Below are positions 17,169 to 63,200 of a stretch of 64,000 nucleotides of DNA, in pieces. Under the pieces are notes generated by a model. It had not been told where the DNA came from. It did no database searches and saw only the letters and a program-made list of their open reading frames with translations. The DNA is from Sphaerodactylus townsendi. Its lineage: Eukaryota. The stretch lies in contig NC_059428.1 in NCBI RefSeq assembly GCF_021028975.2, forward strand, positions 26,412,001 through 26,476,000. The letters run 5' to 3'. A program made the position numbers and the translations under genes. How positions within the stretch are numbered: the first letter of the stretch is position 1; the number at the start of each line of letters is the position of its first letter.

Positions 17169-20100
17169 CTGCTGAAAGGAAAATATATATCTGGGTGATT
17201 AAATATCTAATACATCGAATATCTGATACATATATACACAGTACACTGGTCATAAAAAGACTATATATATTAAAAAACTAATATTGTAACCAAATAAAGA
17301 TGTCTAGGGTTATGGAGCTATCCGGCTGAGAGCTAGAACAGATGGCCTCTTGTATGCCCTATGTCATCACTGCACTGGTACACAATCCACTTTGTACTAT
17401 TACACATATAATTGTACTATTACTCATACAATCGTACTATTACACATATAAGCTTTGTTACCCAGCATTCTTGAGGAATGGGTGTTACTGGTTAAATGAA
17501 TGAGCTGGATACTTGATCTTATACTTCTGCCTCACCTGCAACCTTGAGAATGTCAAGCTGACAGGTCCTAAGCCTGGCAGGACCCTTGCAATTCCTCTGG
17601 GGGCCACAGAACTGTCCTGCCAGCGGAAGAATGAGCAGGCCAGTTGAGGAAATCAGCTGGCCTCAATTGCAGCTGTAGGCATCAAGCCAGACAGCTAGAG
17701 AGGAGGCCATGGAACATCACCTGAAGACGTGGTGCCAATTAACTGGTTAATTGGGTCTGCCAGATCACAAAGCTTTTACTATATGCTTAAAATGAGTGGA
17801 GTCTATTTACCTTTACTTTCTTCTTTTTTATCGGCACTGTGAAGTTCTGAAGGTCCTTTTTGCTGGCAGTCCAGGAATTTCTCTCACACTCTACGGTGTC
17901 TTCCTGTTTCCTTTTTTTGGCTGAGCTTCTCAGAGGCCTAAACTGTTGGGAATTGTCTTTGAGGGGTGTATTTGTACTCGTCCTGGCAATAGCTGCTCGA
18001 GAAAGTATCATTAAAGTGTGAGCAGCCATGCTAACACTGTTTTCGCTGCTGGTCTCGCTAGCTGGGCTACAGGCGGGCAGGTCAGGGGTAGCTGGAGGGA
18101 CCATGATCCTGGGTGTTGTACTATCCTCACTGTACCGTTTACACGTGGGTGTCTTTATTATATCAAAGGTGTCCTCGGAGTGTCTATCTCCAGTCCCGGA
18201 GGGGGTACGGGGTACTGGCAAATCCCCATTTTCCGGTAGTTTAGCAGCAGGACTCTGCCTCTGAATGTCATGAAGCATCTCCACAGCCTGTTTGGTTAAC
18301 GGGCTGGTCAAGCAGTGGGTTTGGCCATGAGATTTTGTCTGGTCCTTCTTAGCCTCCTTGGAAGTCAGAACTCCGGAATTTTTGCTGTTTGCGTTCAGCT
18401 GGAGCCCTTGCTTTTTATTCGGTTCTTGTGCTGGGGAGCAGTTCTTCTCGATATGAAGGCTGATGCTTGGAGGGCCGTTTGACAGAGAAGTCCCTTCGTG
18501 ATTAGGACTTATTTCGTCAACTCCTCTTTCCAGCTCGTTTTCTTTGTTTGCCGTCTGCTTTCTCAGCACGTCGGACGCCAGCCCCGGCCCTAAAGCCTTC
18601 CGCTCCAACTGGGCTTCTCTCACGGTCGCGTTTCTGTTCGTGATGTCCGGCTTACACAAAATCCTAGGCAACATCCTCTCGCGCTCCCTTTTGCTGGGCT
18701 GAGTTTTGGTGGAGGGAGGCACCCCGCTGAGAGAATCCCCAGAGAGGGAAGCGTTTTCGTTCCTTTCTTTCTGTGGAGCTGGCAGGCTTCCTCCTGCACC
18801 ACCCGGACTGCTGTCGAAGCAAAGCACTCTTCTGTGGCTTTCGCTTTGCTTGGGGTTGCAGCTGGTTGTGTCAACAGCAACAGCCTCTAGCTTCTTTCTT
18901 AAGTTGGCACAGTTCCCAATCCTGAAAGAAAACACAGTGTGGGATATGAGGGAGATCATGCAACTTTCTCTAGGGGTTTTTTTTTTTGGGGGGGGGGGGG
19001 TTGGCGCTGTTTTTGAAGGTATTGCTGAGGGTCAAACAAGACATATTTTCATCTTCAAGATATCTGAAGCTTTTTTTCTGTCCAGAGGTCAAATCAGCCA
19101 CTAGAAAAACAGGATTAACCCTTTCTGCCCTTGCACAATTCTGCCCCTTCCTGAAGCTGCTATTTGTTCCATAGTGAGAGTACCTGTGATTTTCACCTAT
19201 TGTGCAAAAAAGAATGCTGAGAAGGTGGTGAAGGGATGAAGTTGGAAAAATCGGACTAAGACCCCCCCTCCCTGCAGCCACTTGGCTTGCCTCCCCCCCA
19301 AACTAAAATAAACATGGGCGATTTGCATCACAGATCTTCTCATAAATGGTCAAAATTGGTCCTGGGCTACTGAGCATATTAGTAAACTATATTAACAGAT
19401 ATGGTGATTTAGGAAGGAAATTCCACTCTTCATCTAGAGCCCTGTTGAACGGTCCAGCTTGGTTTCACCTTCTTGCCATTTCAAGAAAGCATAAATGGCA
19501 ATTTATTATATATGTATTACCTAGACTTATGCCTAAGTGGGAAAACTTATTCATAAGAACATAAGAACGAGCCTGTTGGATCATATCAGAGTGCATCTAG
19601 TCCAGCTCTCTGCTACTTGCAGTGGCCCACCAGGTGCCTTTGGAAGCTAACATGCAGGATGTGAAAGCAATGGCCTTCTGCTGTTGCTGCTCCTGAGCAC
19701 CTGGTCTGCTAAGGCATTTGCAATCTCAGGTCAAGGAGGATCAAGATTGGTAGACAATTCAAACAATTCTGCTTTTTACTTTGACCAACACTAATGCTGG
19801 AAGTACACTTGTCACTATTTTTAAAATCTGAAGTTCTCTGAACGATGTTACAGATGGAAGAACGTTACAGATGCAGGAAAGATGCTACTCACTGCCATAC
19901 ATCAGACACTGCAGCCGAAAACTTAACAGGCCACCAGGGGCGATGAAGACAACAGGTGTGGTGTGGACAAAGAAAGAAGTAGGGCTCAGTACAAGAACTG
20001 TCCAAACTAACCCTGATCACATTCACAAGAAATCTAATCCACGAACTAAGTGATCACATGGTCACCAGCAACTCCTGCAATCATAATGGCTGCAAAAGTA

Positions 20101-36800: not shown

Positions 36801-39800
36801 TCACCGTGACTGCCCTGAAAGATAATGGGAACTGCATGCATGCAGAACCTAACCCACCGTCTTATTGCCAGTGTATAATCTGGCAAACAATTACAGAATT
36901 GGATTCTATTAACTTTGGGTTTACATGGGAACAGTCTATTTCAGTGTTCTGACCACATAACATCTAGCAGTTTCGCTTTTGGAACACGTCAGCGTCTACC
37001 GGATGGAGAGGCACACCCACCAAATCCAGGTTAGGGCGAATGATCCATGCAAAGAAGGGAATGAAACTAGCTACCAATAACCAAGGCTGAAAATAATCTC
37101 TACATTTATACTCCAATTAAAAATAAACAACAAGCTTGTATGCGGAATTGGTAGCACAAGCAGCTTTGGCTTTCTTGTGTGCCAGTACTATTGGCAGATT
37201 CATCCCCAGGAGATGGCATCATGAGAGAAATAGAAAAGGAGTCACAGTTCTTCTTGTAGGTTTTTTGCCCTCTGAAAAGGAAATGATTTGAATTATCTAG
37301 TCCCAGACCATTAGTGTATATACCACTGTATCCAGTCACATTTTCTCATTCTGAATCTAGCTCTGACCTGGATAAAACAACATTCTCTTTTCTCATTAGA
37401 CACTGAACTTACACCATTTTCTTTTCCACATTTTGTTTTCACGAAGCCTGAGGATGGCTTTGTGCAACTGCATAAAAAGAAGCAAATCAGGTGGGATGGG
37501 CGATACCCTGTTTTCCCGAAAATAAGCCCCAGTATGATTTTTCAGGATGCTTGGATTTTGGAGGATGCTTGAAATATAAGCCCTACTTCAAAAATAAGCC
37601 CTAGTTACAGATTCCCCGGCACAACTGATCTGGTCATGTGGGTGGTGCAAAATCATGGAAAAAAATAAGACATCCCCTGAAAATAAGCCCTAACACATCT
37701 TTTGGAGCAAAAATTAATATAGGACCCTGTCTTATTTTCGGTGAAACACTGTAGCTGTGATATCTAGTTTTTATTAGCATGACATTGTGCAGAAAATAAA
37801 CATTAAACAGCTGTTTAACCAGGTATTATTTATGTTAGGAATTTCTATATCACCTCTTCGTCCCCAAGGAAATAAATCCACACATTAAAAAGAAATGAAA
37901 ACACAAATATATATAAAACTATTTATTTGCAGGACAGCTCTAAATGTTCAGAACAAAACCCTGATTCCACCAACCCAAAAATGGTCAAATTAAGCCAAGC
38001 AACTAACTCAATTCGGTCTTTGCCTCAACTGAATAATTGTCAGAACTGCCAATTCATTGGCCATCATCCAGCCTATTACTGTCTCAAAGCAGTGATTCAG
38101 AACATGTCCTGCCTGACTATCAAAACAGAGTGAAGTGCCATCTGCATACCAACTATGCTGTACTTCAAACCCCAAATGGCATCGCTTGTCAATGTCACAT
38201 GAGATGTTAAACAGTACAGCTGGACAAGACGAAACCTTATGGAACATCAAAGAACAAATGCCACATGGGTCAAGCAATGGTTTCTCAGAATTACATCCTG
38301 GTAATGGTGTGAGAAGTAGCAGCAGAACTTCTGAAGCTCAGTGCCTCTCCATCTCAGTTCATCATCCTAGAAGGGAACTATGGTGGAGGAGAAGAGTTTG
38401 GATTTTATACCCCACTTTTCCCAACTGTAAGGAGTCTCCAAGTGGCTTACAAACTCTTTCCTTTCCTCTTCCTCACAATAAATACCTAGTAAGTTAGGTG
38501 AGCTTGAGAGATTTCTGAGAGAACTGTGACTAGCCCAGGGTCACCCAGCAGATCTTATGTGGAAAAGCAGGGAAACAAACCTGGTTCACCAAATTAGATC
38601 CCCGGCCCCAAGGATCCCTGTCTCCCACCAGAGCCAAGGTTTTTACGGCCCTGGCTCCTGCATAGTGGAAAGTACTGTTCGCAGATGCTAGAGCTCTGCA
38701 GGATATTGCAAAATTTCGCAGAGCTTGGAAGACCAAACTATTCTGTCAGGCATACAATTGAAGCCGAGATAAAATGCTGTGAAATCTGTAGGCCCCAACA
38801 TCTACATTCCTCCTATACCCAAATGACAGCTATGAGACTGGACAGTTGGGATCTACATGGGCAAATGATTCAGATTAAAAATGACAACAGGGTTTTCATT
38901 ATATGTTTAATTGTTATTTATGTTAAGTATTTTTATGTGACTATTTACAGCTTCATCCAAACTCCCCAGCAGCAGGCCTACAGCGCTAATGCAGCATGGT
39001 CCTGCCACTTCCAAAAGAGCTTTCCAGAGGCATGGAAAGAGGGAAAAGCTCTGAAATCCATTGCCGCTCAAAAGATAGGATTGAAAGGACATATGCCATT
39101 AAAAGAATGGCATATGTCCAAGAGCTGGTGTGCCATGTAACCAGCCCTCAACCTTGGGAGGGACCTGACTAACATACATCCCGTATGCTGATGTCTGAGA
39201 AGGGCCAGACTTCCATGTTTTGTGATGATGAGGTTGCACGATGCACGGTTTCCCCCTCCGCCAGGACAGGTGCCCAGAGGAGGGTGAATGCACCAGCATG
39301 ACTGCATGTCATGTCCACATGCCTTTCACACGCACCTTTGGGCCCATGTCCACATGCCTTTCACACGCACCTTTAGGCCCATGAGCCTACATTTCACCTG
39401 TTAATGGCTGGCAAATGACACAGCATCCAACTGTAAGTCAGAACTGACTCCCAAATCCAGTGTGTAATCTGCCACACAGGCGAGTGACTACATATACAGG
39501 GACAGAAATACACCTTTCAAGGAAACCACCAGTTACAACGTACTCATCTGCGGGCAAAAAAAAAAGCATACATGATTTTGAATCACACAGAACTTTTTAT
39601 CTGCCTGGGCTACCCTGTTTAACCCTACTTAGTATTATGCATATTTTCAGAGGTAAAACCACTTCTCATGAACTGACACAACTTGCAAATGACAAGAAAG
39701 CCAATGGGATTCTGGGATGCATCAATAAGAGTATAGTATCTCGACCGAGGGAAGTAATTGTACCACTCTACTCTGCATTGGTCAGACCTCACCTAGAGTA

Positions 39801-41066
39801 CTGTGTTCAGTTCTGGGCACCACAATTGAAGAAGGGTATTGATAAGCTGGAACATGTCCAGAGGAGGGCAACCAATATGGTAAAAGGTCTGGAATCCATT
39901 TTCTATGAAGAGAGGTTTAGGGAGCTGGGGATGTTTCGTCTAGAGACGCCAAGGTTAAGGGGGGACATGACAGCTATGTTTAAATATTTGAAGGGATGCC
40001 ATGTCAAAGAGGGAGCAAGCTTGTTTTCTGCTGCCTCAGAGACTAGAACACGGAGTAATGGACTCAAGATGCAGGAAAAGAGATTCCACCTAAACATTAG
40101 GAAGAACTTTCTGACTGTCAGGGCAGTTCGACAGTGGAATTCATTGCCTCAGAGAGTGGTGGAGTCTCCTTCTTTGGAGATTTTTAAACAAAGGCTGGAT
40201 GAACAGATGTCGGGAGTGCTTTGAATGTGTGTTCCTGCATGGCAGGGGGTTGGTCTTGATGGCCCTTGTGGTCTCTTCCAACTCTATGTTTCTACAAAAA
40301 CAGAAAGGAGTGATAGTGACTTGTTTAAAGTTGCGTATTAAATTTATGGCAGCCACGAGATTTGAGCAGGGAACTTTACGTATTAGCCACTGGTTAAACA
40401 CCATCTCCCATCATGGCTGGCTGCATTTCCACAAGGGTGTGGTCAACGTCCAGCAGTTACTGCTGTCAGATAAGATATCACACTGTTGCACATTACTCAT
40501 GGGTATTGATTGTCCACACAAGAGATAACGTGGGAGTGTATGAAAGCAGAGGCGTCGGGAAAAACAGGGATGAAATTCAGCACCCAACCCTCTCACTCTC
40601 CTTCACGTTTCTTCCAAGAAGAAAAAGAGCAAAAATGACAATGCAGCCTGGGTGCCCAGCAGCTCTCCTCCCCAACACGCTCTGAGAGCCAGCGTGGTGA
40701 AGTGGTTAAGAGCGGCAGACTCTAATTTGGAGAACTGGGTTTGTTTCCCCACTCCTACACATGAAGCCTACAGGGTGACCTTGGGCTAGTCACAGTTCTT
40801 TGGAACTCTCTCAGCACCACCTAGCTCACAAGGTGTCTGCTGTGGGGAGAGGAAGGGAAGGAGTTTGTAAGCCACCTTGACTCTTACAGGAGAGAAAGGT
40901 GGGGTATAAATCCAAACTCTTCTTCCTGGAGGTCCCAAGAGGCAAGAAGACACGGACGGGAAGGAGCCCCAAGGGCCGTTTTCCCAGCAGTCCCCCTGAA
41001 AAAGACGGAAGGTTTCCCCGCCTGCTTACCTAGCACCAGGCGAGCCACGTCGGAGGGCAGCAACAT
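17094..41066 (-). CDS. NPAT: Protein NPAT (nuclear protein, coactivator of histone transcription); 18 coding exons, ~1425 aa
   Basis: complement join(41030..41066,35817..35935,35497..35557,34081..34153,32616..32656,31302..31532,30433..30514,29872..30016,29014..29105,28833..28920,27928..28024,26555..26683,23322..24944,20727..20842,20539..20641,20258..20312,17811..18921,17094..17168); phases continuous; N-terminal LisH (MLLPSDVARLVLGYLQQE), RRVLCFD, C-terminal MDVDKFLLSLHYDE*. Confidence 0.96.
17811..18921 (-). CDS. NPAT: NPAT exon 17 (RRVLCFD...SENSVSMAAHTLMILSRAA...KKKKVK)
   Basis: 390-aa ORF with conserved NPAT motifs and basic NLS; AG/GT. Confidence 0.96.
19552..19752 (-). mobile_element. 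CR1 3'-end fragment (second CR1 family)
   Basis: (CATAAGAA)2 terminal octamer repeat then GCCTG.TGGATCA...CATCTAGTCCAGC. Confidence 0.8.
20258..20312 (-). CDS. NPAT: NPAT exon 16 (KLKMDQNGSDPVNRRVQ)
   Basis: 55 nt; supplies the phase 1-2 bridge needed between exons 15 and 17. Confidence 0.78.
20539..20641 (-). CDS. NPAT: NPAT exon 15 (VLHMPVQTS...KLPLPPKSQK)
   Basis: AG/GT; phase 0-1. Confidence 0.9.
20727..20842 (-). CDS. NPAT: NPAT exon 14 (SAIIIASPVQPVLQGMVGMIPVS...)
   Basis: Conserved sequence; AG/GT. Confidence 0.95.
21441..21520. repeat. 17-bp tandem repeat TAGAGTACAACAGGAAC (about 4 units)
   Basis: Direct reading. Confidence 0.88.
21628..21894 (+). mobile_element. CORE SINE, long-head subfamily (5'-truncated)
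   Basis: Same body as other copies; CTT tail. Confidence 0.85.
22627..22774. mobile_element. Palindromic hAT MITE family A
   Basis: 148-bp palindrome; TSD ATCTAGAA/ATTTAGAA. Confidence 0.9.
23322..24944 (-). CDS. NPAT: NPAT exon 13 (large Ser/Thr-rich exon, 1623 nt)
   Basis: 536-aa ORF incl. conserved IVSLKIIISDDPF..ELSNAVSSITGENLPTIILSSP; AG/GT. Confidence 0.95.
26555..26683 (-). CDS. NPAT: NPAT exon 12 (KTKGSKN...)
   Basis: 129 nt; AG/GT; phase 1-1. Confidence 0.88.
27928..28024 (-). CDS. NPAT: NPAT exon 11 (GEIHMTEEAIQEILEQTESDPAFHGLFDMFDF)
   Basis: Conserved LFD-containing segment; CAGCAG acceptor. Confidence 0.95.
28833..28920 (-). CDS. NPAT: NPAT exon 10 (...ESSIDEFLALQ)
   Basis: AG/GT; phase fits. 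Confidence 0.92.
29014..29105 (-). CDS. NPAT: NPAT exon 9 (QMVIQNAREKILRNKCLQEKLAENINKFL)
   Basis: Highly conserved NPAT segment; AG/GT. Confidence 0.96.
29512..29770 (-). mobile_element. CORE SINE, long-head subfamily (young)
   Basis: (GAA)n tail on plus strand; ~95% similar to copy at 62268. Confidence 0.88.
29872..30016 (-). CDS. NPAT: NPAT exon 8 (DSQKKK...EGNFP)
   Basis: AG/GT; phase 2-0. Confidence 0.88.
30433..30514 (-). CDS. NPAT: NPAT exon 7 (...HSSTMSPGKRK)
   Basis: AAGCAG tandem acceptor (alternative start 30517); GT donor. Confidence 0.88.
30818..31110 (-). mobile_element. CORE SINE, long-head subfamily (near full length)
   Basis: Ends in CTCTTAACCACTACACCA (A box, reverse complement). 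Confidence 0.88.
31302..31532 (-). CDS. NPAT: NPAT exon 6 (RTRSAIADLKKQK...)
   Basis: Open 231-nt exon; AG/GT; phase 1-1. Confidence 0.9.
32177..32455 (-). mobile_element. CORE SINE, long-head subfamily
   Basis: Same family signature. Confidence 0.87.
32616..32656 (-). CDS. NPAT: NPAT exon 5 (SMQNSSAFSAHQR)
   Basis: 41-nt exon; AG/GT; phase fits. Confidence 0.92.
33706..33841. repeat. (TTA)n...(TAA)n microsatellite in an AT-only tract
   Basis: Direct reading. Confidence 0.9.
34081..34153 (-). CDS. NPAT: NPAT exon 4 (TAHDVPAMMSSLWKKLDYTLSQIR)
   Basis: Conserved sequence; AG/GT. Confidence 0.95.
34524..35023 (-). mobile_element. Tigger/pogo-type non-autonomous DNA transposon (500 bp)
   Basis: 23-bp TIR CAGTGGA(A/C)CCTCGGTTTTC(G/A)TTG, TA TSD, repeated GATGAAAACCGA subterminal motifs, transposase C-terminal remnant ...KRHKKQTSLDSFL. 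Confidence 0.88.
35497..35557 (-). CDS. NPAT: NPAT exon 3 (SLFGKNLTTILNEYIAMKTK)
   Basis: Conserved sequence; AG/GT. Confidence 0.96.
35817..35935 (-). CDS. NPAT: NPAT exon 2 (YLQQEKLLSTCRTFILES...)
   Basis: LisH domain continuation; AG/GT. Confidence 0.96.
37506..37751. mobile_element. Tc1/mariner (Tc2-like) MITE
   Basis: TA-flanked TIR CCCTGTTTTCCCCGAAAATAAG / CTTATTTTCGGTGAAACACTG; internal AAAATAAG repeats. Confidence 0.8.
38387..38600 (-). mobile_element. CORE SINE, short-head subfamily (truncated)
   Basis: Family body plus tail. Confidence 0.8.
39310..39379. repeat. 35-bp tandem duplication
   Basis: CATGTCCACATGCCTTTCACACGCACCTTT(G/A)GGCC x2. Confidence 0.88.
39690..40294 (+). mobile_element. 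CR1 LINE 3' fragment (ORF2 C-terminus still open, plus 3' UTR)
   Basis: ANGILGCI...LYSALVRPHLEYCVQFWAP...WNSLP typical of CR1 ORF2; ends in TTCCAACTCTATGTTTCTA. Confidence 0.93.
40684..40925 (+). mobile_element. CORE SINE, short-head subfamily (full length), ~100 bp from NPAT exon 1
   Basis: GAGAGCCAGCGTGGTG 5' end, A/B boxes, CTT tail. Confidence 0.88.
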
Positions 41067-54200: not shown

Positions 54201-57200
54201 CTCCTGCCGGCTAGGGATATAATTTCTGGTATCTTGTATACAAGAATATCACATTAGTAACACTGCTAATCTCTGAATTATGGGTAAGAAAAGGATGTAG
54301 AAAGATGTACTACTTCTTGTTGTCTCTTCCCTATCATGAAGAAATAGCCAAGCCAGCGATTCCCAACGGGTGCTGTGAGCATATCCCAGGGGTACCGCGG
54401 CAATGCTACTGGCCCCCCTCACTTTTGTGGGGTCTCCCGCCAGCACCAGCAAGGATATGGAGCTGGCCCAGGGGGCAGGGCCTGCTGCAAGGTCAGCAGC
54501 AACTTCCTACCCCCACCCCCACCCCCGTGCTTCCCTTCACCCTAGGAGGGGAAGGTGGGGGGTGGCAAGCAGGGAAACTGGGAGGGGAAGGTGGGGGGAG
54601 GTTGGCAGGGGTACCGTGAGGTCAAGAGTGAGGTCAAGGGTACCATGACATCGAAAAGGTTGGAAAACACTGAGCCAAGCCCTTCCTTCTGCCATTGGAT
54701 TTAACCATGATTAAAGGGTACATCTGCAATGATTTTAACCATGGTTAATAACAGCCGAGTTTTGAAATCCCATTTCAGACTGTTGTTTGAATGTTGATCC
54801 TTGTTAATTTAGCCATAGAATGCTGGGGCAGACATTATCCTTGGGAAAGGATAGAATGAAATTACTTCCAGATCCTTCTGACAAGCTGATCTCTGAACCA
54901 TGGTTAAGAGATTGACAGTGTCATCGTAAGATAACTTTCCTGGGAGTAAGCCTCATTGGCTGCAGCTGCGTCGGCCTTCCTTAGGATTCCTTAGTTCCTG
55001 AAAGCTATGACATTGCACACAACCTGTTATATTGATTATAATCTGGAGGGAATTATCTTGATTAGTTCTGCAGCTCAGTTCTTGGCGGTAGCAATGAGAA
55101 GTTTGGGAGTGCCAGAAACGTCGAATGTCAAAACAGCCCAGAATTACGGGGAAGGAAATGCAGGGTATACATTGAAAGAAACAATCATGAAATGGCTTTT
55201 GTTCTGCCATCTGGAGGAAGACATGGAAGACAGTGTGGAGCTGCCTCCTATTCTCTGCAGGTAAATAATTTGAGAAAAGTCAACCTGCACAATAAAATCT
55301 TTCTGATGGACATGTTCATGGACATGTTTATTTTAATTTTACAGGTTATTTTAACTACCTTGATTTTATATATGGATAACAAGGTGTTGCTTGAAAAGTA
55401 GATGTAGCGTGAGGAAGCTGGACTGAAGGTGTATCTGCAGCCATGAAACATTCTGTGCTCAGGACTTTAATTTAGAATTGTGATTTCTAGAGTGGGGTTG
55501 AAGGGATTGCTTCAACTGACTTTTCCAAAATTTCTTCCAGTGACTTTCCTAATCTGGTGTTGCAGAAAATTCTTGTAAGCCTGACAATGAAGAACTGTAG
55601 AGCTGCACTAGAATTTTTCCACAAAGCTTCAGAATGGTATGTTTCCAAAATCAGTGTGTGTGTTTCTGTAAATTAGAGGAAATATTTTTAAATTTAAACT
55701 TTTTGATTTTAGATATCTGGGTACCATTTAGCTTGGGAAATTCATGAAAAGTTCTATCTATGCAATCCAGAGGGCAAGCTTCCTAAGAACCACTCAGTTC
55801 ATGCTGCATCCAATACTTTATTTTAATTTGAGTCCCGATCAGAAACTTTTCATGCAACACAGCAGATAGTTTTTGAAGTGGAGGGAACTTAACATAACTT
55901 TTAAACTAATACAACCAGACAAAATTCCATGCTTCCAGAATACTTCATTTTGTTGCAAACTGTTAGAAGCTGAAATTTTCTCCAGTGTGAAATAACAAAA
56001 TCTGGGATATATGACCAACTGAGATACTGACATCACAATCCTAAACAGAATCATGCCTTTCTTAGCCCATGGATGTCTGTGGGTTTAGAAGGATATAACT
56101 CTGTTTAGGATTGCACTGCGGCTTACCAAAAAGCATAACAACAGAGCACCAAAAAGCCTGCATATTCCCTGTGAAAACTTTCTAGATTAAAACATACTAC
56201 AAAGGTGGTGGTGGTTGTCAGAAAAAAACATTTACCACTGTATTTAAAAACATAAGAACATAAGAACTAGCCTGCTGGATCAGACCAGAGTCCATCTAGC
56301 CCAGCATTCTGCTACTCACAGTGGCCCACCAGGTGCTTTTGGGAGCTGTCATGCTGTCATCTGAGCCTCCCTTTCTACTCCTACATAGCCTTCCACCAAA
56401 ATGCTGTCCTTGTTAATGGGGAAAAGGTTTTTATTTCGCTTGCAAGCTGCAAATACTGAAAATCTGTTGTAAATCTGTAGTAAATCCTTTTGTAAATAAT
56501 CTATTTACATTTTTATCCCCTTAAAATGATATAACATACACCAGTAGTCCTGTTTTACAAATCCCTGATTTGTGTGGGGTTTTTGTTTTAAAAATTAACA
56601 TAGAAATATTTATTAATACCCCTCTCCCCAAATCTTTCAAAGAGGAATTTTCTTTACAGCACAGAGGTCTGCTGTTGTACAACAACTCCCCCTGGCCAAA
56701 AAAACCCCCTTTCTTGTTCCATCTTTGGCAACAATTATTGTAGTAAAATATCACAGATAATCTTTCTTCTATTTTTAAAGTATGGAACATTCACAAAAGA
56801 AAGAAGCCAGTCTTCCAGAAACAGAACCATATTTCATGCAGACAACTTTTGATGAAATTATTTCTTTCACAAATGCGACTGATAAGACATCAACTAACAA
56901 AGTGCCTGGTTCCAGACTGGTTGTCAGTCAGAAATTGAAAGATGCCCTGGAGCATGATCTGTTACTGATGTCAGAACAGCTTCTTAATAACATCTCCCTT
57001 GATGTAAGTTAAAAAATTAAAGTCTGTACTGTTGTCTTTTATTTACAAGGTGATTTGGAAGTTGCTGTGTTCTGTAGTAGTACAGAATTTAAGACCAGTT
57101 GCATTTAAATGCAAACAAAAATGTTCAGCGTATAAGCTTTTGTGACCCAGGCTGACTTGGTCAGATGAATATATGTTTTCTTGTGATTAATGGTCAGTGG

Positions 57201-60200
57201 CTGTCAAGATTTTCACAATTAGAGTAACATTAGCATAGCATATTTCAAAATGAGTACACCACATCTAGTATCAGTGTTTAACATTAATGAAATTATCCTG
57301 AAATTTAGTGAATAATAAAAAAAGGCCCTTGTGCTCATTTTGTGATAGTGTGGTGTAATGGTCAAGACTAATCTGGTGAACCAGGTTTACTTCCCTACTC
57401 CTACACATGAAACCAGCTGGGCAACCTCGGGTTAGTTTACAGAAGGGAAAAGAACCTGTCTGGCTCTAGTGCGAACTTTAAAACTCTATTTTTAATGAAA
57501 ATAATTAAAACGTTTATATAACAGAACCATAACTCTTAATCAACAACAAAAGTATACATATTATAAATAACAACAACAATAAAACAATGAATAATTGTTC
57601 TTGGATTGAATTCCACTGAATTCCACAGGGGATCCCAAATACAATAATATCAAGTCTCTGTAAAAAAGTTATTACTTTGAAAGAGATCCACTAATGGTGT
57701 AGAAGTGAAGGATGCCAATGTCTGATGCCTTTACATACTCAACTTCCATAGATGAGTTTCATGTGTTCATAGATGAACGTACACACATCATGATGTTGGT
57801 AGAGAAATCTTTGGCTGGTAGTCAATAGACCTTGGGTTAGTCACAGTTCTCTCAGAACTCTCTAGCCCCACCTACCTCACAAGGTGCCCATTGTGGGGAG
57901 GGGAAGGAAGGTGATTGTAAGCCACTTTGAAACTCCTTACAATGGAGAAAAGTGAGGTATGAAAACCAACTCTAATAATAATGATAGTATTCGGTGCTAA
58001 ATAAATTTACCATCTCTGATTTAGTTTGGATACTGAAAAGAAACTATTGAACTTGGATTTTGACAGTGTGTAACTGTAGACAATGTAATAAAAACACTTT
58101 TGATTCATTTTTGTTGTTCATATAATTTACTTTAAGGCTATGCCTGCAGAAAACCTTGTGCGTTGTATTGGTCTCTTGATTGGTGTTCTGGGTTGTTATT
58201 GCTATGCTGGGATACAGACAGAAGAGGAAGCATGCAGATCTGAGCTTTTTCATAAAGCCAAGGTAGGACTTTTGGTTATTATTTGGCTGAAAAATATGCT
58301 AAAAGGTGAAAGGTACAGCTGTGATGTACTTATAATATATGTAAGGAAAATCTTGAAGTAGTGATTTCCCCTCGCAATTGATCTTTAGACAGTCCCAAAG
58401 GATTTCATGACAGAATGCATCTAATTGTGCTCTTCCAACCATTGGAAGAAGAGGGACATGATTATACTATAGGCCAAAGGTTTGCATTCCAAATATAGTT
58501 GACAGGAGCTGTATAAATAAGAATCAGGGATTTGTAAAACAGGACTACTGGTGTATGTTATATCATTTTAAGGGGATGAGAATGTAAATAGATTATTTAC
58601 AGAAGGATTCACTACAGATTTACAACAGATTTTCAGTATTTGCAGATTGCAATCAAAATAAAAACCTTTTCCCCATTAACAGCATTTTGGTGGAAGGTTA
58701 TGTAGGGGTAGAAAGGGAGGCTCAGATGACAGCATGGGATCCATACTGTGTTTTAATCTCTATTTAAGGTTTTTTCTATTTAATCTCTATTTTTAAGGTT
58801 TTAAGGTTGCCTGTCTGTAGACATTAACCAGACTCTGATATTGAATATAATAGTCATTGGAAGTCTGTCCAAGGTGAGGTACCATACTTTTCATAGCCAG
58901 ATCTGCAGAGCATGGGAAAGACAAAGGGAGCGAGCGGGAGTTAGTAATGTTTACGTAAAGTGAGGTGAGAGCCATTATCTGGTTGCTTGGCACTACTAAG
59001 CGAAGGAATGCAGGGGAATGAAGCTAGGATAGTCTGCAAAGCAAGGCAGGTGAAGATTGGAGCAGCTGCAGCTGTGTGAGAACGCTCTGATGTAATGGAG
59101 CTATCAGTTCCCAGCTCCTACCAGGAGACAATGATAGCCTGCAACCAAGCTCATAGCAGCTGAAACTGTGAAACAGATTAAAGGGCTGTTAGTAAGAGCC
59201 ATTAAAAGCATTTAGGCTGCCATGAAACACTTGAGCAAAAGGTGATTACCCAGAATTCTGACCCCCGTTTAATAATGGAGAATCTGAGAAGCAACAAGTT
59301 CATTCATATGGGGCGGTGCCTTCTGTCCAGGGTTCCCTGGAGCCCTGTGTTCTGAGCACATCTCCTTGTAGATTCTACATCGTTTTTCAGTCTCATTTTA
59401 GCTGCTACCCTTTTTCTTACATCTGACAGTTGATGGTTAGATAAATGGCTTATTACAAGTGTTTGCTCTTTTTGAAAATGTGGAGTGGGCCAGGACGAGG
59501 AAGTTAGAATTCTTCATCCAAACATAGGATTGAAAATCTCAGGAAACAACTCACAGATTTGGTAGTCCCCATGAAGTTAGAGGCTAGGTGTTCTCTCCAT
59601 AAAGAAAGTTCCACTTGAGGTTCTTGGATTGAATTCCACTTTATGGCAGATTTCCTTTTAACTTCCCCAAGCTACTTGTGGGGTCTCCCCTCTCCCAAGA
59701 ATGTCCTTTTGGGCTGCAGCTAGTGGGAGAGGCAGGAAAGTCCATGGAAGGTCTAGGTAGGATCTAAGTCTACATCTTCCTCCAGCTGAAGCATCTTTGT
59801 TTGACATGTAACTTTAGTAATTCACAAAATAAAGACTAGAATTAGCTGTGTTTTGAAAGCAAAGGCTCTGTAATGCCTATTGTTGAGATCAAGCCAAACT
59901 ATCACAAAACATTCAAGTGTTTAAGTTCTCCAAAGCTCTTCATTGGGCTGGACGTTCAGTATATAAAAAAATTTCTTTTCAATATACCGTAACAGTCTGT
60001 TTGGACATAATTCCATTGAATTCAGTTAATTCTGCAGTATATCCTGGGTCCTGTGTTTCTACAATCTGCTTTCTGTCATGCCCGTGAAACATCTTGAAGC
60101 ACTTCTCCCCTTTCTTTTGTTTTTGGTACTCAACATCCAGCCTGATGAAAATTTTTAGAGAAACTGAAAACTTGCTCATTGTTTTTTAATATATTGATGA

Positions 60201-63200
60201 CCTAACAAAAGTTATTGCACAACCACTTAACATGGTTAATCACAACTAAATTTCAAATTTGATTTGTTTGGCATACATCTAGATCAGGGGTCTGCAACCT
60301 GCGGCTCTCCAGATGTTCATGGACTACAAATCCCATCAGCCCCTGCCAGCATGGCCAATTAGTCATGCTGGCAGGGGCTGCTGGGAATTGTAGTCCATGA
60401 ACATCTGGAGAGTCACAGGTTGCAGACCCCTGATCTAGATGAAAAAACTTATGCAGGTAACAGTTTCTTAACGTTTTGTTTTCTTTGTCTTTGAATAGTC
60501 TCTTATGCATTATGTTGGAGAGAGTGTTTCTCAGTCCAAAAGCAAACTAAACGAAGATGCTAGGACAATCTCTCTGAAGGCTTTAATCATACAATGTACT
60601 AGTTGCTTATGTAACTGTACCCAGGTAAGACATTTGCTGGTTTTTTTACTCAAATCCATAAATTAGTGAAGCTGAACGTTTTTGGGGTTTTTTGGCCATT
60701 TTAAAATTTACCTTGATCAAGATTACATAGTAAACTAAGGATATTTGAAATAATGTTCCACTGAAATCTTTGAATCCCACTTAATTATATCAGTAGAACA
60801 ACTATTGAAAATAAAATGTGCCCAGATGCATTCAGTTGAGAAGCTGAAACTCTTTCCTATTAGGGTCCCATCTGAAAACACATATTATACCAAGCAGTTT
60901 GTTGGTATCTAATCATACATGTGGATATACATGAACGTACATTCTTTGCAGAACAATGCGGTGGCCCAAATGAATGTTGCAAATTGCTGTAATCTTTTGC
61001 AAATGGTTTCTGCGCGGACTAAGGGAAAAATAAAATATTAGAGTGAAATTCTGAGCTTCAGTTAAGTTGCTTAAGTGCCATTTAAACGAATAGGATATAA
61101 GCAGCCTACCCATGTACAGAACTGAAAAAGTTCAATGAGGAACTTAGTCTTCGCTTATAAAGCAATAATTCATTTTGTGACCATTTAAAAATATTATAGT
61201 ATTTGATTTTGTGACCCACCTTTCTCCCCAACGGGGAACCAAAGCAGCTTACATAATTCTCCTGTCCTCCGTTTTCTGCTCACAACAACCTTGCAAGGTT
61301 GATTTGTCTGTGAGAGACTGATTGACTCAAGGTCACCCGTCAGGCTTCCATGACAAAGTGCAGGGGGTAGGGGTGAACCTGGTTTTCCGACAACCTATAC
61401 CAGTGGTGGCGAACCTTTGGCACTCCAGATGTTATGTACTACAATTCCCATCAGCCCTTGCCAGTATGGACAATTGGCCATGCGGGCAGGGGCTGATGGG
61501 AATTGTAGTCCATAGCATCTGGAGTGCCAAAGGTTCGCCACCACGGACCTATACCAACCACTACACCACATGAGCTCTAATTAGTAGAATATAAAAGAAG
61601 TTTTAAATTTGGTAACATCTGCGGTCTCTATCCATTTCTACTTTTACTTGGTCCTTTGGCGTTTTATTTAGGAGAAAGTGAATTAAAAATTGACTGTTTA
61701 CAAACTACAAACCTAAGCATGATTGATCTATGTATCAGTATGTCTGGGGAAAACCTCCTTGCTGATCTAGTAAACAGTGCTGTTTACAGTATGATTGCAG
61801 TATGATTGCAGTATGTTTGCAGTATGATTTCAAACTTAGTCATTTGGTATTCGCTGCCTGCCTCACAAAGCAAGATAAACAGATTATTTAATTGGTATTT
61901 CCTTTGGATTTTTGACAGAACAGCCCCAGAAAGAGCCTGTCTGCTTTTTTCTTGCATTTGTTAACATCAAAGCTGATGAACGATCTTGCGGATATTTGCA
62001 AACATCTGGTGAGCTGTCGCTATGTATAGTGTTTTCCTTCTCCTCATAGATTGTGTATCGATTTAGTGTATCCCAAAGATGTGGTAAAGGAAATATAATT
62101 ACCCACATAAGAGAACTATATTGTAATTGAAAGGCTGGGTTTAGTCTTCCCTGTACTGGCTAAGAATGATTGTGTACAGGCGGAGTCCTGGATGGCGGTG
62201 CCCACTTCGGAGCCAGGGCTGCTTGCCGTTCTGGAAAATACAGTGACTTTATTTTTTGGTTTCTGGTAGAAGAAGAAGAAGAGTTTGGATTTATATCCCC
62301 CTTTCTCTCCTGTAGGAGACTCAAAGGGGCTTACAATCTCCTTGCCCTTCCCCCCTCACAACAAACACCCTGTGAGGTAGATGGGGCTGAGAGAGCTCCG
62401 AGAAGCTGTGACTAGCCCAAGGTCACCCAGCTGGCGTGTGTGGGAGTGTACAGGCTAATCTGAATTCCCCAGATAAGCCTCCACAGCTCAGGCGGCAGAG
62501 CTGGGAATCAAACCGGTTCCTCCAGATTAGATACATGATCTCTTAACTTCCTAGGCCACTGCTGCTCCTGAAAATGAGATGATCTCTCTCAATCAAGTAC
62601 TAAAGCAACTTACTGGTGTGGACTGGTAAAGCTGTGAATTATTTGTGACTTACTTGATTGAGAGAGATCATCTCATCTTCAGTTGAGATCAGGTGGGAAT
62701 ATCTAGGGCCTTTTTAAAAAATTAAACTTTGAACTACAAAACTATGTCATAAAATTAATATAATCTTTACAGTAGACTTGGGACTTTTAGTTGCATGATT
62801 TTGCTTGAATTACAAGGGCAAGAGAAAGGGCTTTCTCAGCAAAAGTCTAGTTTGGTGGTACCCACATGATCCTGCCAATATGAGACACACAGGAATATGT
62901 TTGTTCACACATGCTTTTGGTGACCAGGGATAATGTTTTCGTGGTTTGTGTATAGTTTGATGAGGGGTGTGTGTATAAGTGCCATCCCATAGGAGCTGGG
63001 AGAGTGGGCTGCAGGGATCGTATGATTTTATTGTTAAGAAAAGGATGTAAGAATTCTAAACAAGTCGATCATATTTCTGTTTAGATGGCTTTTATGGGAA
63101 AGCCAAGTGAAGCTGCAGAAGTCGATTTAATGGAAGATGATGGTGAAGGGAGTGGGAAAAATGGAGAGAATACGGTATTGGATTTATTTGATGACCATTC

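Follow-up and report, generated by a model that had tools for sequence, protein, structure and literature searches.

An inverted repeat of intron-14 sequence, fused on one side to a CR1-type LINE fragment, brackets exons 13-14 of ATM in Sphaerodactylus townsendi

Intron 12 of ATM in the window, a stretch of 64,000 nt of S. townsendi DNA (NC_059428.1, positions 26,412,001 to 26,476,000), carried a 221-nt inverted copy of intron-14 sequence fused to the fragment of a CR1-type LINE. We consider it quite likely that this copy (the left arm) was written as the LINE was inserted, and that its pairing with the intron-14 original (the right arm) yields at most a minor, unselected circle or skip product of exons 13-14. 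The sequence comparisons show the repeat, its fusion to the LINE, the microhomology at the junction, that the right arm sits in its ancestral place, and that each arm has changed independently. The bracketed exons are the 12th and 13th coding exons of a map to which the exon at 55541-55636 was added by hand; we take them to be ATM exons 13-14, assuming one non-coding first exon as in the numbering of the human transcript. The LINE is presumably of the CR1 type, as judged by its tail and C-terminal motifs. The features are as follows.

55541-55636, plus strand: ATM exon 12, 96 nt, with AG/GT ends and a frame open with exons 13-15; upstream partner in a predicted skip product
56243-56250, plus strand: candidate target-site duplication, an 8-nt stretch repeated at 56587-56594
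56251-56347, minus strand: 5'-truncated copy of a young CR1-type LINE, of which the last 97 nt are present, with a tail of 8-nt units
56345-56360, plus strand: LINE-to-arm junction, showing microhomology of 3-5 nt together with a tandem repeat of 8 nt
56350-56570, minus strand: left arm, the derived one: intron-14 sequence copied in inverted orientation into intron 12
56781-57003, plus strand: ATM exon 13, 223 nt, matching human ATM residues 634-706
58137-58262, plus strand: ATM exon 14, 126 nt, matching human ATM residues 712-750
58522-58736, plus strand: right arm, ancestral single-copy intron-14 sequence and donor
60499-60624, plus strand: ATM exon 15, 126 nt; an exon 12-15 join would reach a TAA at 60548-60550

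BLAST of the window against itself showed that 56350-56570 is the reverse complement of 58736-58522, with 206 of 221 columns identical (93.2%, one 6-nt gap; E 2e-91). Over ungapped columns the identity between the two arms was 206/215, or 95.8%, and a repeat search of the window returned an ungapped core at 56411-56570/58522-58681 with 96% identity. The inverted repeat of about 215 bp and about 96% identity described in the original prediction was thus real. The left arm lay 210 nt 5' of the exon 13 acceptor and the right arm 259 nt 3' of the exon 14 donor.

The arms might be independent mobile-element copies paired by coincidence, as the region is repeat-rich and the genome-wide search for the arm skips very common words. 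That search nevertheless gave only 2 matches in the 1.81-Gb genome of the animal itself, in agreement with the single-copy depth found in organisms C, D and E (see below), and the edges of the right arm were without repeat, with 2 matches only. No match to the arm was present in 39 other 10-kb LINE loci or in the 164-kb ATM region, no Rfam match was found in 55400-60700, and the arm alone folded no better than shuffled sequence (z 0.68). We therefore regard coincidence of mobile elements, including a dispersed SINE/MITE pair, as extremely unlikely and largely refuted; the arm sequence did not prove multi-copy. The prediction's description of the arms as unique sequence needs one amendment: the left arm does not stand by itself but adjoins a high-copy LINE fragment at 56251-56347.

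Related organisms were compared through contigs and depth from 4 of 9 sequencing runs, where contigs derived from repeats dominated the joints and loose ends. A single unbroken contig in each of organisms C, D and E (892, 899 and 1063 nt) ran from the neighbourhood of exon 14 through the right arm, and mid-arm depth matched that of the contig itself (23.5, 31.8 and 7.4). The presence of the arm at the intron-14 site in all three indicates, as far as assembled contigs go, that the right arm is the ancestral copy and that the left arm probably arose by templated insertion. The left arm itself appears to be missing in C, D and E, in contigs that show presence better than absence. Among the contigs listed for organism C, one of 283 nt tracked the left flank as far as 56241 and did not continue into the LINE over its remaining 130 nt, which hints at an empty site. 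One copy in C, D and E fits the lineage specificity that had been proposed. Organism B shared the 6-nt deletion of the right arm; at a depth of about 4 and with no cover at 56664-56760 it was uninformative on the left arm.

The left arm retained 6 nt that have been lost from the right arm, and organisms C and D have those 6 nt (0 gaps). An arm produced by faulty assembly would repeat the right arm as it now stands, so the 9 sites at which the arms differ and the retained 6 nt argue against the left arm being an assembly artefact. The window is also without any N, and we give this explanation hardly any credence.

The LINE fragment also matched 19552-19655 within the window. A first look at the genome gave 1540 candidates for the family, of which 40 were scored. 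The fragment agreed with the majority of the 29 best-matching copies at 95 of 97 positions, both odd letters occurring in other copies, and longer copies of the same LINE carried a reverse transcriptase frame (Pfam RVT_1, E 8e-34). The fusion was located exactly at the truncation point: the family majority was followed to 56347, where donor sequence took its place. The left arm is thus extra sequence that begins where the LINE, whose 3' tail is intact, is truncated on its 5' side. Microhomology and the tandem repeat at the junction fit two rounds of priming on the donor, a reading that we infer from the junction. The second copy of the candidate target-site duplication (56587-56594) lay 16 nt beyond the left arm. 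As matches between the ends of the 39 other LINE copies were at most 2-8 nt and mostly chance-like, the duplication, short or unclear in these sister copies, was not used as a hallmark.

The following series of steps is proposed. Target-primed reverse transcription would first have placed the last 97 nt of the LINE in intron 12. The growing strand would then have left the LINE RNA and paired, over 3-5 nt, with sense-strand sequence 2 kb downstream; orientation allows that template to have been nascent pre-mRNA of ATM as well as sense-strand DNA. It may have primed twice, copied about 220 nt and been joined back. Insertion would date from about the time at which the lineages of organisms C, D and E branched off, or later, but would precede the loss of 6 nt from the right arm; both arms would have drifted since.

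Alternatively, the LINE may have come first and been broken later. Host repair, by polymerase-theta-type end joining or break-induced copying, would then have filled the break with 221 nt templated 2 kb downstream, with loss of the remaining LINE sequence. For the RNA this would make no difference. Microhomology with a short iterated repeat, as at this junction, is a signature of host templated repair too. A local single-copy template at the 5' end was found in 0 of the 39 other copies (within 10 kb around each), so the capture event is uncommon, which also suits a separate repair. None of the 39 others, measured at 114-3553 nt, was as short as the 97-nt fragment, although very short copies arise without capture too (114 and 115 nt). 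Against later repair, a second event would be needed at exactly the same element within a short time, because the LINE fragment (2/97 off the majority) and the left arm (4/215 off organism C) are of similar ages. We consider later repair unlikely and favor copying at the time of LINE insertion.

Copying at insertion has parallels, and the left arm likely belongs to LINE-associated templated insertions, a known kind of event. The extra 5' sequence of LINE inserts often comes from flanking DNA, according to PMC4245944. In 10.1101/2024.08.27.596794, 22 templated L1 insertions are described, typically under 250 bp and with templates typically within 15 bp of the insertion site; PMC11702581 describes L1 inserts templated by genomic sequence close by and others that arose by template switches between two RNAs. 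As in these L1 cases and in the 5' extra nucleotides of ZfL2 (PMC4245944), a 5'-truncated LINE with an intact tail was joined through microhomology to duplicated local sequence of less than 250 bp. The present case differs in that the element is of the CR1 type and in a reptile germ line, and in that the template was about 2 kb away, rather than within 15 bp, and is inverted against its source. Unlike in the L1 insertions, the captured piece also has the sense of the host transcript, which makes an RNA template possible. In a stronger version, the CR1 reverse transcriptase would have jumped to nascent ATM pre-mRNA and written the intron-14 piece back reversed, creating a lineage-specific exon 13-14 circATM and a decay-bound skip isoform that trims the ATM dose. 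We hold this full chain to be improbable; if true, it would be a route for LINEs to seed new circles from host sequence.

Changes in the two arms were independent. Compared with organism C, the left arm had 4 private changes and the right arm 5 plus the 6-nt deletion. All 4 sites differing between C and the left arm were among the 9 arm-arm differences, and 0 of the 9 changes were shared; polarity was ambiguous at 2 of the 9 sites, 56437 (B and D with the right-arm letter) and 56482 (E with the left-arm letter). Divergence between the arms (9/215) was similar to that of the flanks between this genome and organism C (56/1944; Fisher p 0.29), with 9 differences making this a weak test. Transitions that retain a G-U pair numbered 5 of 7 (p 0.23 at one half), and 4 mismatches and a 6-nt bulge have accumulated in the duplex. 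Neither compensatory changes nor cross-species conservation, both expected of a conserved regulatory duplex or poison-splicing switch, were found at these 9 sites or in C, D and E, each with one copy. From sequence comparison, both arms appear to decay without compensation, i.e. by drift.

The inverted match is present in both flanking introns near splice sites, and is predicted to be able to pair. The predicted arm-arm duplex had -353.8 kcal/mol vs a mean of -62 for 20 shuffles. The geometry and the capacity to pair had been rightly predicted. In the mapped part of ATM, 21 inverted pairs enclose exons, and among them the arm pair was both the strongest and the closest; of the 14 such pairs spanning at most 10 kb, it scored 333 bits and the runner-up 159. 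The pair might be a functional, lineage-specific switch that sets the ATM dose by diverting pre-mRNA to a 349-nt circle or a decay-sensitive skip product. Repeats of 30-40 nt were enough in minigenes (PMC4201285), reverse complementary matches promote back-splicing and skipping according to PMC8330042, and a human circATM from other exons exists (PMC12869237). On the other side, PMC4201285 reports that some repeats fail to support circularisation, and PMC8516420 mostly interprets circles associated with young repeats as by-products. All four splice junctions here were canonical AG/GT, and the arms evolve at flank-like rates with 0 of 9 compensatory or shared changes. We regard such a switch as very unlikely. 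ATM dosage control, as first proposed, is unsupported as a selected trait: the left arm is a recent LINE-linked copy with flank-like divergence, and of the 32 ATM exon blocks mapped, 20 are already enclosed by an inverted pair within 10 kb. A minor exon 13-14 circle or skip product from pairing of the arms is plausible. A real splicing effect is conceivable, since the pair is the strongest and closest one enclosing exons and the selection test, with its 9 differences, is weak.

The arrangement resembles the circRNA-promoting reverse complementary matches of PMC4201285 and PMC8330042, with inverted intronic sequence on both sides of an exon pair, near splice sites and able to pair. The ATM arms, however, are single-copy intron sequence rather than two SINE copies, and any RNA product of theirs is a prediction. 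The pair also lacks the conservation of the 13-nt match in zip-2, which five nematodes retain. Human hsa_circ_0003641 is also an ATM circle, but of 526 nt and from exons 3-6 in the numbering of PMC12869237. No literature on this locus or on reptile circATM was found among the entries listed.

As a germ-line case of host sequence captured by a LINE over a distance of 2 kb, the locus is clean and datable, and relatives separate the ancestral from the derived arm. It is also a natural experiment, as close relatives appear one-armed: a comparison of RNA would ask whether a new near-perfect intronic duplex is enough for a circle or for skipping in an essential DNA-damage gene. A large and regulated effect on ATM mRNA would amount to a new route to lineage-specific gene dosage; nothing here points there.

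Exons 13 and 14 together comprise 349 nt (223+126), and skipping of both shifts the frame to the TAA at 60548-60550, which bore out the frameshift that had been expected of the linear product. An endless frame encoded by the exon 13-14 circle was rejected, since 349 nt is not a multiple of three; the ATM frame on the circle meets a stop 23 codons past the back-splice point.

As shown by self-comparison of the window, 56350-56570 in ATM intron 12 is the reverse complement of 58522-58736 in intron 14, as originally noted. The arms were identical in 206 of 221 columns, with one 6-nt gap (E 2e-91). Used as a query against the 1.81-Gb S. townsendi genome, the right arm returned two matches, the two arms themselves. 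The features of the left arm and the bracketed exons are as follows.

Features adjoining or enclosed by the arms
56251-56347, minus strand: 3' end of a truncated LINE, directly 5' of the left arm
56781-57003: ATM exon 13, matching human ATM residues 634-706
58137-58262: ATM exon 14, matching human ATM residues 712-750

A snake ATM protein model (P0001) was mapped as 30 blocks to the window plus 100 kb downstream. The bracketed exons were coding exons 12 and 13 in a count to which two exons without counterpart in the snake protein were added by hand; they are presumably exons 13 and 14, if there is one non-coding first exon. Distances between the arms and the splice sites were 210 and 259 nt, and AG/GT was present at every junction. 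Joining exon 12 to exon 15 led to a TAA at 60548; skipping is predicted to shift the frame, as had been proposed. P0001 had no segments for exons 12 and 15 (55541-55636 and 60499-60624), just outside the bracketed pair, which are probably gaps in that gene model.

Contigs of four of the nine listed sequencing runs, from relatives (organisms B, C, D and E) were compared with 55500-58400. Organisms C, D and E each had one contig (892, 899 and 1063 nt, respectively) that mapped to the exon 14 region and, reversed, to the left arm. In the organism C contig, 57912-58400 corresponded to record 1-488 and the arm to record 610-830, which matches the right-arm spacing. Mid-arm depth equalled contig depth (23.5, 31.8 and 7.4, respectively). 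These unbroken contigs, their spacing and their equal depth indicate that the right arm is the ancestral intron 14 sequence, and from the unbroken contigs we infer that C, D and E would lack a second copy. A 283-nt contig of organism C tracked the left flank up to 56241 and, in the rows listed, its other 130 nt did not enter the LINE, hinting at an empty site. Compared with the left arm, the copies of C and D had 4 and 6 differing sites and no gap, so the 6-nt gap represents a later deletion in the right arm. The organism B copy had 8 differences and 6 gaps, and shares the 6-nt deletion. The evidence argues against a mis-assembled left arm: such an error would duplicate the present right arm, whereas the left arm keeps the 6 nt lost there.

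A genome-wide first look gave 1540 candidates for the LINE, which we take to be CR1-type from its tail and C-terminal motifs; 40 of them were scored. At 95 of its 97 nt the fragment carried the majority letter of the 29 other copies that matched it best, a comparison biased toward close match because these were picked by likeness to the query; both deviating letters occurred in other copies. Longer copies were often 95-98% alike and had a frame for reverse transcriptase (RVT_1 in Pfam, E 8e-34). At 56347 the family sequence ended and donor sequence began, with 3-5 nt common to both sides and an 8-nt tandem repeat. Two priming rounds on the donor would account for this junction without later mutation. 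We consider it likely that the left arm arose when a LINE strand left its own RNA, copied the downstream donor and rejoined. The nascent strand would have dissociated from the LINE RNA once 97 nt were made, paired with the sense strand 2 kb downstream and been extended there by about 220 nt before it was joined back. Later host repair inside the LINE, the main alternative, would place the copying after insertion and seems unlikely. The strand read has the same sense as the ATM transcript, which fits nascent RNA and the sense DNA strand alike; a single case cannot decide between them. Of 39 other copies of the LINE, each retrieved with 10 kb of sequence, 0 carried a nearby single-copy template at their 5' end. 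Such capture is uncommon, yet this LINE family numbers at least 1540 candidates.

Sequence of templated origin has been described before at the 5' junctions of LINEs: 5' extras frequently come from flanking sequence (PMC4245944), 22 templated insertions were typically <250 bp and within 15 bp (10.1101/2024.08.27.596794), and nearby DNA templated three inserts and two RNAs nine (PMC11702581). The left arm and LINE are best filed among LINE-associated templated insertions; an origin in one event and a target-site duplication are candidate features. Elsewhere in the genome (L008, G000:C3 near 150,763,735), a 115-nt 3' end of the LINE was joined head to tail with a second 3' end, likely a template jump between two LINE RNAs within the family. 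Long tandem arrays lay near LINE copies at two other fetched loci (L053 6204-10000 and L033 7734-9554, oriented coordinates), the former showing a 64-nt step and about 99% homogeneity across 3.8 kb. A stop-free frame of 258 codons, with the LINE-type motifs again present at its C terminus, occupied 39448-40224, upstream of the coding exons of ATM.

Nine substitutions separate the arms. Polarised against organism C, four fell in the left arm (56388, 56482, 56512 and 56514) and five in the right, with no change common to both arms at the nine sites; two sites polarised otherwise with other outgroups. Within the predicted RNA duplex, five gave G-U pairs and four mismatches, and wobble was retained at 5 of 7 transitions (p 0.23). 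Arm divergence (9/215) was not below flank divergence between S. townsendi and C (56/1944 over four flanking contig pieces, exon bases included; Fisher p 0.29). These nine substitutions, a weak test, gave no sign of conversion, compensation or constraint.

The arm-arm duplex was predicted at -353.8 kcal/mol (mean of 20 shuffles, -62), and the arms would pair in ATM pre-mRNA. Such pairing makes it plausible that exons 13-14 are circularised or skipped to some degree, or that editing occurs. Pairing-driven back-splicing and skipping (PMC4201285, PMC8330042) and circles as by-products of young repeats (PMC8516420) are described; the known human circATM derives from exons other than those bracketed here (PMC12869237). 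Our literature search found nothing on this ATM locus. The interpretation originally proposed stood in part: the arm pair resembles a reverse complementary match in geometry but, unlike regulatory duplexes, failed the conservation and compensation tests, and a selected ATM dosage switch is very improbable.

Between 45,000 and 82,000, in window coordinates continued downstream, exons were enclosed by 21 inverted pairs of at least 60 nt, 14 of them within 10 kb, and 20 of 32 ATM exon blocks fell inside one of these 14. The arm pair had the top score there (333 bits, against 159 for the runner-up within 10 kb) and ranked 11th of 118 over 41,600-164,000. Further along ATM, 16-19 kb downstream of the LINE fragment, lie partners of opposite orientation (72988-73091 and 75148-75252 in extended coordinates, 89-91%), with which this fragment can itself form long-range pairs. 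A second strong local inverted pair (L078, G000:C4 about 26,537,005-26,537,832) comprised 235 nt at 92% with arms 367 nt apart; because its ends are matched by other repeats in this region, we regard it as a probable palindromic mobile element. Two palindromic MITE-like repeats (60276-60441 and 61389-61551) lie either side of the in-frame exon 15 (126 nt); they can pair (86% over 126 nt), and each also self-folds.
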